Assembly (NCBI GenBank): GCA_005878615.1
Contig: VBLT01000120.1
Coordinates: 1-62,946 of the forward strand
From: Methanobacteriota archaeon
GTDB taxonomy: Archaea > Thermoplasmatota > Thermoplasmata > RBG-16-68-12
Direction: 5' to 3'
Length of the DNA: 62,946 nucleotides
In this document: positions 47,343-53,574 of the stretch, one piece after another
Numbering within the stretch: position 1 is the first letter of the stretch
How the letters are laid out: every line of letters starts with the position of its first letter
Position numbers and translations under genes: made by a program
The notes under the pieces: generated by a model
Databases searched by the model: none
Told to the model about the DNA's origin: nothing
The model's input: only the letters and a program-made list of their open reading frames with translations

Positions 47343-47418
47343 GGCCGGGATGGGCTAGCTTGGTTGATGCTAGGGGACTGTGGATCCCTTGACGCGAGTT
47401 CAAATCTCGCTCCCGGCC
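47343..47418 (+). tRNA. tRNA-His (anticodon GTG) with genomically encoded G-1
   Basis: Hand-folded. Acceptor GCCGGGA/TCCCGGC with an extra 5' G opposite discriminator C. D-loop has A14, G18-G19 and A21. Anticodon stem GGGGA/TCCCT, loop CTGTGGA. T-arm GCGAG-TTCAAAT-CTCGC. No encoded CCA. Confidence 0.9.
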
Positions 47419-47564
47419 CTTCCGCAAAGGCCGTGGGGCCGCGCATCGCCCACCGAGGCATCCGGCGACGCATCTTCTTATATTGGCTGTCGGATGGGCA
47501 GGTCGCTGCTTCGCGGCGATGAAGAAGCCGCGCGGGAGCCCGGGTCCCCAGGAGCGGGGCTGCG

Positions 47565-50500
47565 ATGATCAAGCAGGCGGAGAAGACGTACGCTCCCCTA
47601 GAGGTGGAGCGCCAGGTCCAGGAATTTTGGAACCGCGCGAAGGTCTACGCGAAGACCGTCGCGGCGCGTTCGAAGGGGGAAGACTTCTACTTCGGCGACG
47701 GCCCGCCCTATACGACCGGGTCAATCCACCTGGGCAATGTCCTGAACAAGTCCCTGAAAGACGCCGTCATCCGCTTTCGCCGGATGCGTGGCTTCCACGT
47801 CCGAGACCAGCCCGGGTACGACATGCATGGCCTCCCGATCGAGGTCCAGGTCGAGAAGACCCTGGGGATCACGAACAAGAAGGAGATCGAGGACTTGGGG
47901 ATCGAGAAATTCGTCTCGACCTGTCGCAAGTTCGCCCTCGATTTGCTGAACAAGATGACGGACCAGTTCCGGGCCCTCGGGATCTGGATGGACTGGGACC
48001 GGCCGTACATGACGATCCGGAACGAATTCATCGAGGCGGCGTGGTGGACCCTCGGCCGCGCGCACGAACGCGGTCTGCTCTACGAGGCCCTCCGCTCGAC
48101 CCAGTGGTGCTCCCGCGACGAAACCGCCCTGGCCGACGCGGAGATCGAGTACTCGGATGAGACGGATCCCTCCATCTACGTCAAGTTCCCGCTCCGGGAC
48201 CGACCCGCCGAATCGCTCCTGATCTGGACGACGACTCCCTGGACCCTCCCAGCGAATCTGGCAATCGCGGTCCACCCGCAGTTCGTCTACTCGAAGGTGA
48301 AGGTGGTCCGCGGAGAGTCCGTGGAATTTCTGTGGACGATGGAGGCGACGGTTCCCGCCGTCATGGCCCGCGGCGGGGTGACCGCCTACGAGGTCACCGA
48401 GACGACGACCGGCGACAAGCTGGTCGGCCTGGCCTATGCGCACCCCCTCGCGGACAAGGTCCCCTATCAGGCGACCGCGACGGGGGAATGGGTCCATCGC
48501 GTGGTCTCCTCGACCACCGTCGAGGCGGAGCACACGGGCCTCGTCCACAGCGCACCGGGTCACGGTCCGGAAGATTTCGAACTCGGGCAGACCCTCGGGT
48601 TGCCGGTCTTCAGTCCGGTCGACGGACGGGGCCATTTCACGAAGGAGGCGGGCGTGTACGCCGACAAGCCGGTCAAAGAGGCGGACGCGGTGATCATCGA
48701 GGACCTCCGCGCCGCGAACGCTCTCTTCGCCGCGGAGACGCTGGTCCATGCCTACGGTCACTGCTGGCGCTGCAAGACGCCGATCCTCTACCGCGCGACG
48801 GTCCAGTGGTTCCTGCGGGTCACGCCGATCAAAGCGAAAATGGTCGACGAGGTTCGCCGGGTCGCGTGGTATCCAGAATGGGCGGGCGCGGCCCGTCAGA
48901 TGGACTGGACCCAGAACCTGCGGGATTGGTGCCTCTCCCGCCAGCGGTACTGGGGCATCCCGCTCCCGATCTGGCGGTGCACGAAGTGCGGCCACTGGAT
49001 CGTCGTGGGCTCCTCGGACGCGTTGCGGAAGGCGCAGGGATACGCGGACGGCATGGACCTCCACCGGCCGGGGATCGACCAGGTCGTCCTGCCGTGTCCG
49101 AAGTGCCGCGAGGAGATGCGGCGGGTCCCCGACATCCTCGACGTGTGGTGGGACAGCGGAGTGGCCAGTTGGGCGAGCCTCGGATATCCCGCGCGGGACG
49201 ACGAGTTCCGCCGGTGGTGGCCGGAGGACTGGATCGTCGAAGGTCCCGACCAGACCCGGGGTTGGTTCAACTCGCAGCTCGCCGCCGGCGTGGTCGCCTT
49301 CGACCGAGCGCCGTACGACAGCGTCCTCATGCACGGGTGGGTGAACGGGCCCGACGGCCGGCAGATGCACAAATCCCTCGGCAACATCATCGAGCCGGAG
49401 ACGGTCGTCCGCAAGTTCGGCGTCGACGCGCTCCGCTTCTACATGCTCTCCGTCAACGCACCGTGGGACGACATCACCTTTCAGGAAGACGGGGTTCGCA
49501 ACGCCAACCGCACCCTGAACATCCTGTGGAACGTCCTGCGCTTTGCGACGACCTACATGGTCCTCGATCGATTCGATCCGACGGCGCCGGACTTCGCCTC
49601 GATCTCTGGCCATCTGCGACCCGAGGATCGGTGGCTCCTCTCCCGGCTCGAAGGCCTCAAGGCGACCGTGAATGCGGAGTTTGCGACGTACAATCTGCAT
49701 CGGGCCTTTCGGGCGGTCGAGTCCTTCATCCTCGATGACCTCTCGCGCTGGTATGTGAAACTCGTCCGGGGCCGGACCTGGACGGAAGCCGAGGATCGCG
49801 ACAAGCTCGCGGCGTACCATGTGTTGTTCGAGGCGTTGCGCACCGTCGCGGTCCTGCTCGCGCCGGTCACGCCGTTCGTCGCCGAAGCGATCTATCAGCG
49901 ACTGGATGGGAAGAAGCTCAGCGTGCACATGCTCGATTGGCCCTCCGCCCAGGAGGAGCGACTCCAGCCGGACCTCGAGCGGTCCATGTCGATCGTCCAG
50001 GAACTCGTCGAGATCGTCTCGAAGGAGCGGCAGAAGGGAGGGCGCAAGCTCCGGTGGCCGTTGAAGCTGATCGCGGTCCAGGCGCCGACGCCGGAGGCGG
50101 CCAAGGCCCTCGAGACGTTGCGGGGCATCTTCCTCGAACAGGCGAACGCGAAAGCGCTTGCGGTCCTCAAAGCGAACGAGGAATTCCCTGGGATGGCCCT
50201 CGTGGTGAAGCCGGACGGAGCGGCGATCGGGAAGGCCTATCGGGTCCTCCAGCCGAAGATCGTGAAGCTCCTCGAGGGTCGCCCGCCCGAGGAAATCAAG
50301 AAGGCGCTCGACAAGGGCCGACTCGAAGTCGGCGTCGAAGGCCAGGTCGTCGCGATCGACCCGTCGATGGTCCGATTTGAGAAGGCGATGCCTTCCGAGG
50401 TCGTCCGGGTGCCCACGCCGTACGGCGAGCTCTACCTCGACCTGCGCGTGACGCCGGAGCTCCGTGCCGAGGCCTACGCGCGCGAGTTGATCCGCCGGAT

Positions 50501-51719
50501 CCAACAGATGCGGAAAGAGATCGATCTGGACGTAGATGACTTCCTGATCACGGTCATCAAGACGAACAAGGAATTGGCGGCGTTGATCGGGGGACAGAGG
50601 GATTTCATTGGTCGGGAGACCCGCTCGCGTCGGATCACGTTCACGGACGGAGCGGTCGAGGCCGAGTACGTCGTGGAATGGAACGACGTCGACGGACATT
50701 CGGTGACGATCGGCGTCACACCGCTCCACATGTCCGAGGCCCTCCGCGACTTCACGAAGATCCCGGGCATCACGGTCGCGAAGGCGATGGGCCTGTTCGA
50801 TGCGGGCTACAAGAGCCTCGCGGCGTTGCGCGCGGCGACGAAACAAGAGCTCGCGCAGATCGAGGGCCTCCAAGTCGCGGATGCGGTTCGGATCTTGGAC
50901 GCGCTCGCGGCGAAGAGGGACACATCGATCCCATGCCCCACGTGCGGGGCGGCCATCGCCCCATCGACCCGCCGATGCGCGCGGTGCGGCGAACCCGTCG
51001 CAACGAAGGGGACCCCTTGCCCCAGGTGTCGCGCGGAGATCCCTCCGGGCGCGGACAACTGCCCGGTCTGCGGCTTCGTCTTGTCCACGTCGGCGACGGC
51101 CCCGCCGTCGCGCGTCGCATGCATCGCCTGCGGCGAGCTCATTCCCGCGGGCTCGACCGAGTGCCCGTCCTGTGGCGCTCCCCAAACCCGGGCCCCCGCG
51201 TCGAATCGTGCGGCCTCGGAGGACGACGCTCCGCCCCTCTTGAAAGATTCCTCCTCCTATCTCGTCGAGGAATCGGTCCCGGACGGGGCCTATCGGCTCT
51301 TCGAGATCGCCCAGAGGGCGGGGAAAGGCGGGATGGTCATCACGCGGACGTTCCCGCAGAAAGTCCGGGAGCGACTGAGCGGTCCCCCCTTCCCGATCCT
51401 GTGGCTCAGCAATGTCGGGAAGGAAGACACCGTCCGACCGAAAGACCTGGAGAAACTGTCCCTCGCCGTCGAGCAGTTCCTCGCTCGGGAGAAGGGCGTC
51501 ATCCTCCTCGACGCGATTGAATACCTGGTGACGAACAACAATTTCATCACGGTCCTGCGGCTCGTGCAATCGATCCGCGACCAGGTCGCGATCAACAGTG
51601 GGGTGTTCCTCCTCTCCGTGAACCCGTCGGCCCTCGATCCGCACCAGCTGACCTTGCTCGAGAAGGAGGTCGACCGGGTCATCCCCGGGTCGTCCGGCGC
51701 GCGGACCGCGTCGGGCTAG
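47565..51719 (+). CDS. ileS: isoleucyl-tRNA synthetase fused in frame to a C-terminal HhH + 3x zinc-ribbon + DUF835-like module (1384 aa)
   Basis: Class I motifs PPYTTGSIHLGN (HIGH-type) and KMHKSLGN (KMSKS-type). CP1 editing region. The ORF runs uninterrupted past the usual end at ~aa 1054. Confidence 0.9.
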   Translation: MIKQAEKTYAPLEVERQVQEFWNRAKVYAKTVAARSKGEDFYFGDGPPYTTGSIHLGNVLNKSLKDAVIRFRRMRGFHVRDQPGYDMHGLPIEVQVEKTLGITNKKEIEDLGIEKFVSTCRKFALDLLNKMTDQFRALGIWMDWDRPYMTIRNEFIEAAWWTLGRAHERGLLYEALRSTQWCSRDETALADAEIEYSDETDPSIYVKFPLRDRPAESLLIWTTTPWTLPANLAIAVHPQFVYSKVKVVRGESVEFLWTMEATVPAVMARGGVTAYEVTETTTGDKLVGLAYAHPLADKVPYQATATGEWVHRVVSSTTVEAEHTGLVHSAPGHGPEDFELGQTLGLPVFSPVDGRGHFTKEAGVYADKPVKEADAVIIEDLRAANALFAAETLVHAYGHCWRCKTPILYRATVQWFLRVTPIKAKMVDEVRRVAWYPEWAGAARQMDWTQNLRDWCLSRQRYWGIPLPIWRCTKCGHWIVVGSSDALRKAQGYADGMDLHRPGIDQVVLPCPKCREEMRRVPDILDVWWDSGVASWASLGYPARDDEFRRWWPEDWIVEGPDQTRGWFNSQLAAGVVAFDRAPYDSVLMHGWVNGPDGRQMHKSLGNIIEPETVVRKFGVDALRFYMLSVNAPWDDITFQEDGVRNANRTLNILWNVLRFATTYMVLDRFDPTAPDFASISGHLRPEDRWLLSRLEGLKATVNAEFATYNLHRAFRAVESFILDDLSRWYVKLVRGRTWTEAEDRDKLAAYHVLFEALRTVAVLLAPVTPFVAEAIYQRLDGKKLSVHMLDWPSAQEERLQPDLERSMSIVQELVEIVSKERQKGGRKLRWPLKLIAVQAPTPEAAKALETLRGIFLEQANAKALAVLKANEEFPGMALVVKPDGAAIGKAYRVLQPKIVKLLEGRPPEEIKKALDKGRLEVGVEGQVVAIDPSMVRFEKAMPSEVVRVPTPYGELYLDLRVTPELRAEAYARELIRRIQQMRKEIDLDVDDFLITVIKTNKELAALIGGQRDFIGRETRSRRITFTDGAVEAEYVVEWNDVDGHSVTIGVTPLHMSEALRDFTKIPGITVAKAMGLFDAGYKSLAALRAATKQELAQIEGLQVADAVRILDALAAKRDTSIPCPTCGAAIAPSTRRCARCGEPVATKGTPCPRCRAEIPPGADNCPVCGFVLSTSATAPPSRVACIACGELIPAGSTECPSCGAPQTRAPASNRAASEDDAPPLLKDSSSYLVEESVPDGAYRLFEIAQRAGKGGMVITRTFPQKVRERLSGPPFPILWLSNVGKEDTVRPKDLEKLSLAVEQFLAREKGVILLDAIEYLVTNNNFITVLRLVQSIRDQVAINSGVFLLSVNPSALDPHQLTLLEKEVDRVIPGSSGARTASG

Positions 51720-52513
51720 GATTCCCGGTCCTTGCGGAGCACCGCCGCGACGACTTCGGGAAGTCGCGGGACCGTTTCGTAGCGACTGATCTCCTCCGGC
51801 CGAATCCAGCGGTACTCGACGTTCTCCCAATCGAGGCGCACGCGGCGGCTCGGTGCGTCGAAGAGGAGGGGGTGGACGACGAACATCGTGGCGCCGTCGC
51901 GGGCAAGGATTGGGGCCGCGTTCGCACGAAACCGGATCCCTCGAAGACCGGTCTCCTCTCGCACCTCTCGGATCGCGCGGGATTTCGGATCCTCGCGGCC
52001 TTCCATGTACCCCGAGATGGCCGACCACTGACCTCGGAACGTGCCGACCGCTGCACTTCGCCGCACGAGGAGGATCCGGCCGCGGTTGCGCAGGACGACC
52101 GAGACGACGGATCGTCCGCGGACGCCCGCGAGCTCGACGGTCCCACGGTCCCCGTCGATGCGGACCGTGTCGTCGTTCTCCAGGCCACCCACGTCGATCC
52201 CATCGACCATGGGAATCCCGGCGAGGATCGCGCCGACCGCGACGATTCCCTCGGCCGCGGAGTTGACAATGCCCGCCGGGCCGACGCCCCTTTTTGCGAG
52301 GCCGTAGATCACGTAGGAGCCGACCGTGCTCCCCTTGCCGTGCGGGAATGCGAAGATCCGCCCGCCGAGGCGTTCGTTCGCGGCGCCCGTCGCGGCGTCG
52401 AGGACGGCGCCCGTGGCCGGATCCGCGCCGCCGACGAACGAGAAAGGGACGCGAATCACCAACGCGGTCCCTTCCGTCCGGCCCGGTGCAATCCCGCGTC
52501 CGCGGAGCTTCAT
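51716..52513 (-). CDS. AcnX swivel (DUF126) small subunit fused to a Nudix hydrolase domain (265 aa)
   Basis: The N-terminal half FAFPHGKGSTVGSYVIYGLAKRGVGPAGIVN...AVGAILAGIPMVD is DUF126. The C-terminal half carries the Nudix box GYMEGREDPKSRAIREVREETGL. ATGA overlap with the large subunit. Confidence 0.8.
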   Translation of the reverse strand: MKLRGRGIAPGRTEGTALVIRVPFSFVGGADPATGAVLDAATGAANERLGGRIFAFPHGKGSTVGSYVIYGLAKRGVGPAGIVNSAAEGIVAVGAILAGIPMVDGIDVGGLENDDTVRIDGDRGTVELAGVRGRSVVSVVLRNRGRILLVRRSAAVGTFRGQWSAISGYMEGREDPKSRAIREVREETGLRGIRFRANAAPILARDGATMFVVHPLLFDAPSRRVRLDWENVEYRWIRPEEISRYETVPRLPEVVAAVLRKDRES

Positions 52514-53574
52514 CCGTACCGCTCCAAGAGGGCATCGAGCTCGTCGAGGATGACCTTCTGTTTGCACAAGGTCGGCAGGTAGTACGCGGCCTTTCCCGAA
52601 GGCGTCGCGACCGTCCCGAATTGATGCTCGAGCAGTGTGACCTCGAGGCACGTATCCGCGAGGACGCGGCCACCGTGGCTCTCGATCGCCGCGACCGGCT
52701 CCGGGTTCTCGTCCCGGACGGCGCGACTCGTGAAGACCCAGACCGGGATCCGGGGAGGCTTCCGTCGCACGCGGTCCGCGACGCCCCACAGTTCCTGCCC
52801 AGAGAGTTGGGGCGAGCCGAGCGCGATCACGTCCGGCTTCGTCCCGTCCGTGAAGGACCTCTGGGCCTCGACCAGATCGCGCCGGGAGATCGTGATGGAG
52901 GGCAGGCCTGCGGTGCGGGCCCGCCGCGCCTCGGGGGTGACGTCTTCGAGGTGGAACATGGCACAGGCGCCCGTCGAGGCGAGCGACGCCCCGAGCCATT
53001 TCAGGTCCTCCTCGGACCCGTGGAATCCGCGGAAGAACGGGAGGCCATCGCCCACGCGCTGGCCCGCAACCAGACCGATGAGGGAGAAGTCGAGGCCGTG
53101 TGGTTTGGTGGTCACGTTCACGCGGACGGTCGGCCGTCGGCCTTCGTCCTTGTGGAGGCCGTGGTCTGGCGTCGCGCCGACGATCGCGGCGGCCAGGGCC
53201 GAAGGGCCTCCCTCGCGGTTCGTCCGTGCCCCGAGGACGGAGTTGGCGAAGCACACGGCGTTCGATTCGGCCCAGGCGACGTGCTCTCCGAACGCGGGCC
53301 GCGCTCCAACGAGGTACGGCGTGCATGTGAAACTCGGACGGACGCCCATCGATCCGTAGGCGCGGGCTCGGGCGTCGCGCGCGAAGTCCTCGAGGAACTC
53401 GAGGCCCGGATCGCCAATCATCTTGTACGAGGCGCCCGACACGTGCGCCGAAGTGACGGGGACGAGACGCTCCGCCTCCGAGAGATGGGAGAGGGCGAGC
53501 AGGATCTGCATCGCCTTGCGCTGCGCCGGCGTGCCGTCGTCCCGCAAGCGGCGCTGCTCGCGGGTGAGCCGCAT
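52510..53574 (-). CDS. AcnX (DUF521) aconitase-X catalytic large subunit
   Basis: VTSAHVSGASYKMIG..., CTPYL..., WAESNAVCFANSVLGARTNREGG. Confidence 0.8.
   Translation of the reverse strand: MRLTREQRRLRDDGTPAQRKAMQILLALSHLSEAERLVPVTSAHVSGASYKMIGDPGLEFLEDFARDARARAYGSMGVRPSFTCTPYLVGARPAFGEHVAWAESNAVCFANSVLGARTNREGGPSALAAAIVGATPDHGLHKDEGRRPTVRVNVTTKPHGLDFSLIGLVAGQRVGDGLPFFRGFHGSEEDLKWLGASLASTGACAMFHLEDVTPEARRARTAGLPSITISRRDLVEAQRSFTDGTKPDVIALGSPQLSGQELWGVADRVRRKPPRIPVWVFTSRAVRDENPEPVAAIESHGGRVLADTCLEVTLLEHQFGTVATPSGKAAYYLPTLCKQKVILDELDALLERYG

Follow-up and report, generated by a model that had tools for sequence, protein, structure and literature searches.

Appended non-catalytic domains are a hallmark of eukaryotic aminoacyl-tRNA synthetases (aaRSs), to which they give signalling and scaffolding roles; appended-domain synthetases and pseudo-synthetase sensors include the eukaryotic aaRSs with WHEP, EMAPII or GST domains, the HisRS-like domain of GCN2, and HisZ. 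To our knowledge, archaeal examples of appended-domain aaRSs are few, and we know of no experimentally established function for the DUF835/iKaiC domain. In the response regulators of archaea, Galperin et al. 2018 (PMC5847659) list DUF835 as an output domain of inactivated KaiC-like type ('iKaiC'), found in REC-DUF835 and REC-PAS-PAS-DUF835 proteins, and a KaiC-type signalling network has been proposed for archaea (cited in PMC5847659). The response-regulator census of PMC5847659 does not list an architecture in which DUF835 is joined to isoleucyl-tRNA synthetase (IleRS). Here we describe such a gene on contig VBLT01000120.1 of a Methanobacteriota archaeon (GTDB Thermoplasmatota; Thermoplasmata; RBG-16-68-12; assembly GCA_005878615.1), positions 1 to 62,946 of which were analysed and are called the window below. 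A single open reading frame (ORF) encodes an archaeal/eukaryote-type IleRS followed by a helix-hairpin-helix (HhH) domain, three predicted zinc ribbons and a terminal DUF835 domain (Table 1). We consider it highly likely that this gene fusion is genuine and lineage-wide, and that it encodes one polypeptide of ~155 kDa whose C-terminal module is non-catalytic and follows the domain order of RadA.

The fused frame encodes 1384 amino acids (aa) and ends in a TAG stop at 51717-51719. As an earlier reading of the DNA from its letters alone (hereafter, the original prediction) had stated, the frame continues past the IleRS part for ~330 codons without a stop, according to both the ORF list and the sequence. 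The protein is matched by TIGR00392, the IleRS equivalog profile, at 935.8 bits (cut-off 621.4), and Pfam assigns residues 18-631 to tRNA-synt_1, 688-835 to Anticodon_1 and 861-1050 to DUF5915. Because this last match spans positions 9-191 of the 195 in the DUF5915 profile, the IleRS body is taken to end at about residue 1054; the original prediction had placed the end of a core of usual length at the same point, and the 1025-1045 aa of unfused IleRS relatives agree with it. Within the body we found the class I signatures HLGN (HIGH) at residue 55 and QMHKS (KMSKS-type) at residue 600, the CP1 editing motifs TTTPWT at 222 and HSAPGHG at 328, and DQTRGWF at 562. Variants of the form xM[SH]KS, with a first residue other than Lys, also occur in unfused IleRS and in all 57 full-length orthologs compared. 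Judging from these profiles and motifs, residues 1-1054 form a complete IleRS that is presumably active and editing-competent.

All parts of the extension score above curated Pfam cut-offs, both in the full protein and when the extension is searched alone. The values are, respectively, 36.3 and 38.4 bits for HHH_5 (PF14520, residues 1061-1114; cut-off 27), 45.8 and 52.7 bits for DZR (PF12773; cut-off 27.3), 31.4 and 44.6 bits for Zn_Ribbon_1 (PF13240, three stretches; cut-off 25), and 105.6 and 108.5 bits for DUF835 (PF05763, residues 1243-1368; cut-off 33.1; E = 2.4e-30). These significant matches substantiate the HhH, triple zinc ribbon and DUF835 of the original prediction, which had named a profile search of the extension as a check. 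Six CxxC motifs, at residues 1124, 1138, 1152, 1166, 1186 and 1200, pair into three CxxC-N10-CxxC ribbons, exactly those quoted in that prediction, and both the Pfam thresholds and the paired CxxC ligands point to zinc ribbons. Chance resemblance is excluded by the domain E-values, above all that of DUF835, together with conservation in relatives.

Table 1. Positions of the fused gene, its parts and the adjoining convergent genes in the window.
Feature	Position	Strand	Basis or remarks
Whole fused gene ileS-HhH-(Zn ribbon)x3-DUF835	47565..51719	+	1384 codons + TAG; ORF list, Pfam/NCBIfam, orthologous frames
IleRS body, archaeal/eukaryote-type, residues 1-1054	47565..50726	+	Rossmann catalytic + CP1 editing, anticodon-binding, DUF5915; TIGR00392, Pfam, motifs
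HhH domain, residues 1056-1115	50730..50909	+	HHH_5, AlphaFold2
Three CxxC-N10-CxxC predicted zinc ribbons, residues 1122-1204	50928..51176	+	Motifs, DZR, Zn_Ribbon_1
Pro/Ala/Ser-rich linker, residues 1205-1229 (low confidence)	51177..51251	+	AlphaFold2 pLDDT, low identity
DUF835/'iKaiC' domain, residues 1230-1373	51252..51683	+	PF05763, AlphaFold2, Foldseek
Short variable C-terminal tail and stop codon	51684..51719	+	Sequence, ORF list
AcnX_swivel-NUDIX gene (aconitase-X swivel + NUDIX hydrolase)	51716-52507	-	Pfam
AcnX large subunit	52510-53574	-	After the AcnX_swivel-NUDIX gene

The continuity of the gene was examined in GTDB representatives (one genome per species), a scan of which found 193 relatives in Thermoplasmata/Methanomassiliicoccales; the genome-level results rest on the 80 that were retrieved. 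When homologues of the extension were sought, many Thermoplasmata fragments combining DUF5915, HHH_5 and DUF835 came up. Variation among relatives was followed with a profile search run exhaustively over 1.84 billion cluster representatives, of which 6065 matched at E <= 0.001 and 528 at E <= 1e-30. The IleRS C-terminus and the extension lie in one tblastn segment in all 80 retrieved genomes, which belong to Thermoplasmata, Methanomassiliicoccales, Methanomassiliicoccaceae and Methanomassiliicoccus sp.; four of the sequences, OW818644.1, OY968769.1, CP070748.1 and CP058896.1, are complete chromosomes. Likewise, the junction is unbroken in 19 of 19 aligned metagenomic relatives (37-80 % identity), where the IleRS strand '...VxIGxTxL' leads into the HhH helix, and this junction is shared by L001, the closest independent assembly at 94 % nucleotide identity. 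No stop was thus found, in the 80 genomes or the 19 metagenomic relatives, at the place where the original prediction had suggested looking for one. Stop-to-stop frames in related genomes with enough upstream DNA measure 1345-1508 aa; the shorter frames seen at a few loci are due to frameshifts, one TAA or an N stretch, in every case away from the junction, those of L004, L026, L036, L044, L046 and L061 being frameshifts inside the IleRS core. The single in-frame TAA belongs to a Methanomassiliicoccales ortholog (L066:4297), at a conserved Tyr codon of the editing domain, and is probably a sequencing error or the mark of a recent pseudogene; a pyrrolysine codon was ruled out, the triplet being TAA rather than TAG. 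When a cultured carrier of the fusion was sought, only names derived from metagenome-assembled genomes (MAGs) were returned (Methanomassiliicoccus sp., Methanomethylophilaceae, Thermoplasmata), with Methanomassiliicoccus luminyensis unconfirmed.

These results bear directly on the possibility that a collapsed stop or a frameshift has artificially joined ileS to a separate downstream HhH-DUF835 gene. Such an error might be suspected in metagenome-type sequence of high GC content (65 % in the window), in which long open frames arise easily, and a 1650-aa antisense frame is indeed present. However, the same unbroken junction in every one of the 80 independent genomes and in all 19 metagenomic fragments, the lack of any genuinely free-standing ortholog among the candidates checked and the purifying selection across the junction region effectively exclude an artefact. 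Four apparently free-standing HhH-DUF835 genes (P0040/L081, P0110/L082, P0120/L084 and P0079/L085) were rejected as such, as all lie inside fused ileS frames: two in uninterrupted frames of 1370-1415 aa, one in a frameshifted frame of a long-read assembly, and one in a frame split by a scaffold N gap. No natural split of ileS and HhH-DUF835 was found among these four. The two uninterrupted frames (L082:4482-8726 and L084:2311-6558; GCA_014361295.1 and CP058896.1) have no ileS product on record, and the proteins recorded within them, of 186 and 242 aa, are named 'DUF835 domain-containing protein'. The antisense frame itself (47721..52673, minus strand) spans all of ileS, is rich in Arg, Pro and Gly and of low complexity, and is a high-GC shadow ORF without coding evidence, a trap for gene callers.

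An AlphaFold2 (AF2) model of the extension, based on an alignment of 84 sequences, has a mean predicted local distance difference test score (pLDDT) of 89.5 and consists of a five-helix HhH, three small beta-ribbons, a disordered stretch and a six-stranded alpha/beta domain. The pLDDT reaches 90-98 in DUF835 and falls below 50 in the linker at extension residues 158-168. In a second model, of the IleRS C-terminal domain together with the extension (predicted TM-score 0.50), the junction has a pLDDT of 93-96, a 3-residue turn leads from the last IleRS beta-strand to the first HhH helix, and the ribbon tether includes segments below 50. Because confidence is high at the junction and partly below 50 in the tether, the models place the HhH rigidly on the IleRS C-terminal domain, with DUF835 held on a flexible leash formed by the ribbons.

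Searches of the PDB with Foldseek gave full-length RAD51/RadA as the best matches of the whole extension (E = 4e-7 to 1e-5, 330-367 aligned columns), whereas the core alone matched PH0284 (2dr3; root-mean-square deviation, rmsd, 3.1 A over 172 columns) and FlaH (4yds; 4.3 A over 167). Weak profile matches of the HhH were to the haloarchaeal eL32 extension, the NusA AR repeats, the RadA/Rad51 N-terminal domain and Hel308 domain 5. The Walker A motif is absent: GK[ST] occurs nowhere in the extension, ESVP occupies the beta1-alpha1 loop, and the consensus of the 84 sequences has no Gly-Lys-Ser/Thr at the P-loop position. The Asp at the end of beta4, the strand equivalent to Walker B (VILLD, residues 1312-1316), is kept. 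Since the Walker A P-loop has been lost, canonical ATP binding or hydrolysis is not expected of DUF835, and from its sequence the extension should be a non-catalytic accessory module. Identity as a KaiC-like ATPase was rejected for want of a P-loop and of any match to PF06745 at E <= 0.1 in the Pfam scan of the window protein. A recombinase was also rejected, given the absent Walker A and the scores of the RadA profile TIGR02236, which reach 19.5-22 bits against a cut-off of 361 and come from the HhH part only.

Conservation differs sharply along the protein. Mean pairwise identity among the 57 full-length orthologs is 0.61 in the catalytic/editing region, 0.55 in the anticodon-binding domain and 0.52 in DUF5915; in the extension it is 0.39 for the HhH, 0.22 for the ribbon/linker region (1115-1225) and 0.75 for the DUF835 core. 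The DUF835 core is therefore the best conserved part of the whole protein, and the ribbon/linker region the least. Comparison of the window gene with five relatives gave ratios of non-synonymous to synonymous substitution rates (dN/dS) of 0.04-0.19 for the HhH, 0.13-0.22 for the ribbon/linker and 0.08-0.18 for DUF835, similar to the values of the IleRS domains. Across the 84 aligned sequences, 24 columns of DUF835 are invariant, many of them polar (R, D, E, K, N-N, Q), and the invariant residues fall in the motifs WLS...RPxDLEKL, ExLxTNNxF and Q...D. Those that make up the polar cluster are R1291, P1292, D1294, E1296, K1297, T1323, N1324, N1325, Q1335 and D1339. Purifying selection on DUF835 is very strong.

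What lies between the IleRS body and DUF835 varies much more. At least 19 proteins of 1228-2329 aa with a C-terminal DUF835 were present among the top profile-search matches, and all those scanned are IleRS fusions. Their spacers hold zero to two HhH domains, zero to three ribbons, TPR repeats and long unassigned stretches; in the metagenomic alignment the ribbon count ranges from 0 to 3 even among close relatives, and the intact forms P0138, P0139 and P0162 have no HhH. As far as sequences tell, the constant feature across relatives is an IleRS body with a terminal DUF835, and the spacer is freely exchanged. Proteins with the architecture REC-PAS-GAF-DUF835 were recovered as more distant matches. 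Other long DUF835 proteins that are not synthetases are P0248 (1059 aa), with a sodium/solute-symporter-like N-terminal region and two C-terminal DUF835 stretches, P0239 (1378 aa), with an N-terminal DUF835, and P0182 (1036 aa); from these architectures, DUF835 appears paired with varied 'input' modules.

The profile search also uncovered at least 14 cluster representatives in which an IleRS-like body has lost the HIGH, KMSKS and DQTRGWF motifs while Anticodon_1, DUF5915 and the junction are kept, as are HhH and DUF835 in the family (P0135, P0140, P0141, P0143, P0144, P0146, P0147, P0149, P0156, P0168 and P0262-P0265; Thermoplasmatota MAGs, loci L086-L091). P0143 (1332 aa) aligns over the whole IleRS body and retains HhH and DUF835, but scores only 278.7 bits with TIGR00392; it reads 'DQLTWKD' at the GSIHLGN position, its KMSKS loop is deleted and its editing motifs are gone. 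In the multiple alignment a similar loss of motifs is seen in P0135, P0140, P0141, P0144, P0146, P0147, P0149, P0156 and P0168, with most of the Rossmann fold gone from P0146 and P0156, and P0262-P0265 lack HIGH and KMSKS too. Identity to the window protein in the catalytic/editing region is 17-30 % for the degenerate forms and 54-57 % for intact fused forms, whereas in DUF835 it is 34-51 % and 43-58 %, respectively, the one exception among the degenerate forms being P0168 (23 %). At NCBI these degenerate forms carry the name 'class I tRNA ligase family protein [Candidatus Thermoplasmatota archaeon]'. In a crude neighbour-joining tree, where long-branch attraction is likely, they occupy long branches apart from both intact fused and unfused IleRS.

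The genomic context of these degenerate paralogs differs from that of the canonical gene. Their neighbours encode an archaeosine tRNA-guanine transglycosylase, an AsnC/RAM-type domain protein, a class II aaRS and ApbA (two cases), and no canonical ileS occurs within +/-10 kb of them; because IleRS is essential, genomes with degenerate paralogs presumably have another ileS. Directly downstream of P0135 stands a gene for an 82-aa stand-alone AsnC_trans_reg (RAM-type) protein (L088:9912-10160, L089:12678-12926), followed by acyl-CoA dehydrogenase and aminotransferase genes, a neighbourhood that may hint at a link to branched-chain amino-acid metabolism. Near one degenerate paralog and a class II aaRS gene lies a gene for a 1080-aa protein with an HHH_5, a double zinc ribbon and many TPRs (L090:3875-7117; GCA_003552585.1), the same building blocks as in the IleRS-DUF835 spacers. 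In sequence, the degenerate forms look like pseudo-synthetases. Because DUF835, the junction and the tRNA-binding domains outlast catalysis in them, the pairing of IleRS with DUF835 would appear to have a selectable function beyond charging, which suggests a role other than aminoacylation.

The fused IleRS thus probably has a second, non-catalytic job, for which we tentatively prefer a docking/signalling module that links the status of IleRS and tRNA-Ile to a partner. DUF835 would serve as a docking or signal-output domain through which the state of the enzyme (binding of tRNA-Ile or isoleucine) is coupled to a conserved partner, the KaiC-type signalling network of archaea being the most plausible setting. 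The HhH and the zinc ribbons would add reach and perhaps further contacts with nucleic acid, the module being made as part of IleRS and not as a separate protein. Several points weigh against this proposal. The partner, ligand and signalling role assigned to DUF835 are reached indirectly, its invariant polar residues could instead mark a small-molecule, nucleic-acid or catalytic site, and an HhH beside the anticodon-side domain fits a plain tRNA-affinity role equally well. In addition, the accumulation of an uncleaved ~155 kDa product is suggested at the level of the gene, and the canonical ileS accompanying the degenerate paralogs is assumed from essentiality. This tRNA-affinity role, in which the HhH and ribbons, and possibly DUF835, act as a cofactor in cis that adds non-specific RNA contacts and raises affinity for tRNA-Ile, much like the EMAPII/Arc1p/Trbp111-type appended domains of other synthetases, seems to us somewhat unlikely. 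It is in keeping with the rigid attachment of the HhH to the IleRS C-terminal domain, which sits on the anticodon side of the tRNA, with the frequency of HhH and zinc ribbons among nucleic-acid binders, with the matches to the RadA N-terminal domain, Hel308 domain 5 and the eL32 extension, and with the tRNA-binding domains retained in the degenerate paralogs. However, conservation is lowest in the HhH and ribbons, which are missing from some intact orthologs (such as P0138, P0139 and P0162), whereas it is high in DUF835, a domain not known to bind RNA; nor would a mere affinity tag be expected to exceed the catalytic core in conservation or to outlast catalysis.

A narrower form of the docking/signalling proposal, which we regard as unlikely, would make the IleRS body a sensor of tRNA-Ile charging or isoleucine supply and DUF835 its output into the KaiC-type network. 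This would amount to an archaeal synthetase-based amino-acid-starvation sensor, with a logic like that of the GCN2 HisRS-like domain, and the dead IleRS-like-DUF835 paralogs would have arisen as dedicated sensors after aminoacylation had passed to another IleRS. RecA/KaiC-fold domains form rings or filaments, and DUF835 might alternatively assemble IleRS into multimers, or anchor the enzyme to the ribosome, to DNA or to a multi-synthetase complex. The RecA/KaiC-like fold, a layout matching that of filament-forming RAD51/RadA, the long and flexible tether and the resemblance to the NusA-AR-like (HhH)2 repeats, which are protein-interaction modules, all speak for such a scaffold; yet the core is truncated, at ~140 aa, and is without the ATP site through which RecA-family oligomers make their subunit interface, and no RadA-type polymerisation motif was identified in the extension, so that we find it quite doubtful. 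Finally, the module might also, or only, be made as a separate protein of ~36 kDa from the in-frame ATG at 50730 (Met1056) or another internal start, giving two overlapping products, a hedge already expressed in the original prediction. The ATG does stand exactly at the junction, Met occupies that column in 33 of 57 orthologs, and the 'DUF835 domain-containing proteins' of 186-242 aa have been called inside the same frame. On the other hand, I, L, T, A or V replaces Met in the remaining 24, Met1056 falls within the first HhH helix directly after the last IleRS strand in the AF2 model, and the short annotated proteins look like gene-calling artefacts, because they start further downstream, at differing positions, inside uninterrupted frames. 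The position of the ATG was thus correct, whereas its conservation does not support separate expression, which is very unlikely.

On the same strand as the fused gene, ~145 nt ahead of the ileS start, stands a tRNA-His (anticodon GTG; 47344-47419, plus strand) that may share a transcript with ileS; no other RNA family was found in the 63 kb window, and neither was a second ileS or DUF835. The opposite strand upstream carries an ornithine carbamoyltransferase gene. On the downstream side, the AcnX_swivel-NUDIX fusion gene, AcnX and a gene for a PF01877 RNA-binding protein run convergently to ileS, the stops of ileS and AcnX_swivel-NUDIX overlapping in the sequence CTAG (51716-51719) with zero intergenic space. 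The arrangement of the AcnX_swivel-NUDIX fusion with ileS recurs at three Methanomassiliicoccales loci (L081, L082 and L084).

The IleRS-HhH-ribbon-DUF835 fusion appears to be undescribed: no IleRS-DUF835, IleRS-HhH or IleRS-KaiC fusion was reported in the literature searched, whose coverage did not extend to the 2017 mBio survey of KaiC hubs, and this is consistent with the statement in the original prediction that no synthetase with such a module was known. In public databases the fused sequences bear the names 'class I tRNA ligase family protein', 'DUF835 domain-containing protein' and 'DUF5915 domain-containing protein'; for the exact window protein, the assembly index gave no record. Annotation pipelines split or misname the gene, or record no ileS, so that ileS could look absent or truncated in these genomes. 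In this archaeal lineage, Methanomassiliicoccales together with other Thermoplasmata, a terminal domain of IleRS is conserved more strongly than the active site, and that domain, DUF835, has already been connected with signal output in the two-component systems of archaea. The fusion gives DUF835/iKaiC a defined and tractable molecular context, and suggests a testable link between translation status and signalling in archaea, whose starvation sensing is poorly understood.

Compared with described systems, residues 1-1054 are a full member of the canonical archaeal/eukaryote-type IleRS (TIGR00392 with a DUF5915 C-terminus, e.g. PDB 8c8u), but that enzyme ends at ~1025-1045 aa, whereas the window protein has 330 extra residues with three further domain types. 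It shares with the REC-DUF835 regulators (PMC5847659) the PF05763 domain, its terminal position and its inactivated KaiC-like character, and differs in the upstream 'input', here a housekeeping aminoacyl-tRNA synthetase or a dead copy of one, there a phospho-receiver or PAS sensor. RadA/Rad51 has the same order of an N-terminal HhH and a RecA-fold core, and the window HhH matches RadA positions 2-53; however, the RadA/Rad51 core comprises ~230 aa with Walker A, that of the window ~140 aa without it, and the window linker between the two domains holds the inserted ribbons. The best structural matches to the DUF835 core, PH0284 (2dr3) and FlaH/ArlH (4yds; rmsd 3.1-4.3 A over 167-180 columns), the second of which also has a weak sequence match around Walker B, rely for ATP binding on an intact P-loop, where the window domain has ESVP and its extension no GK[S/T]. 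An IleRS with an extra fused domain is also represented by ileS_w_GNAT (NF040702), in which that domain is an N-acetyltransferase; membership of this family was rejected (428 bits against a cut-off of 1999). Unlike the appended-domain and pseudo-synthetase systems of other organisms, the window protein has unrelated domains, an archaeal host, and no kinase or known effector attached. By analogy, however, it would share with them the concept of a live or dead synthetase body carrying a non-catalytic domain with a regulatory or tRNA-handling role, and the dead IleRS-like-DUF835 paralogs would parallel, in logic alone, the HisRS-like tRNA sensor of GCN2.

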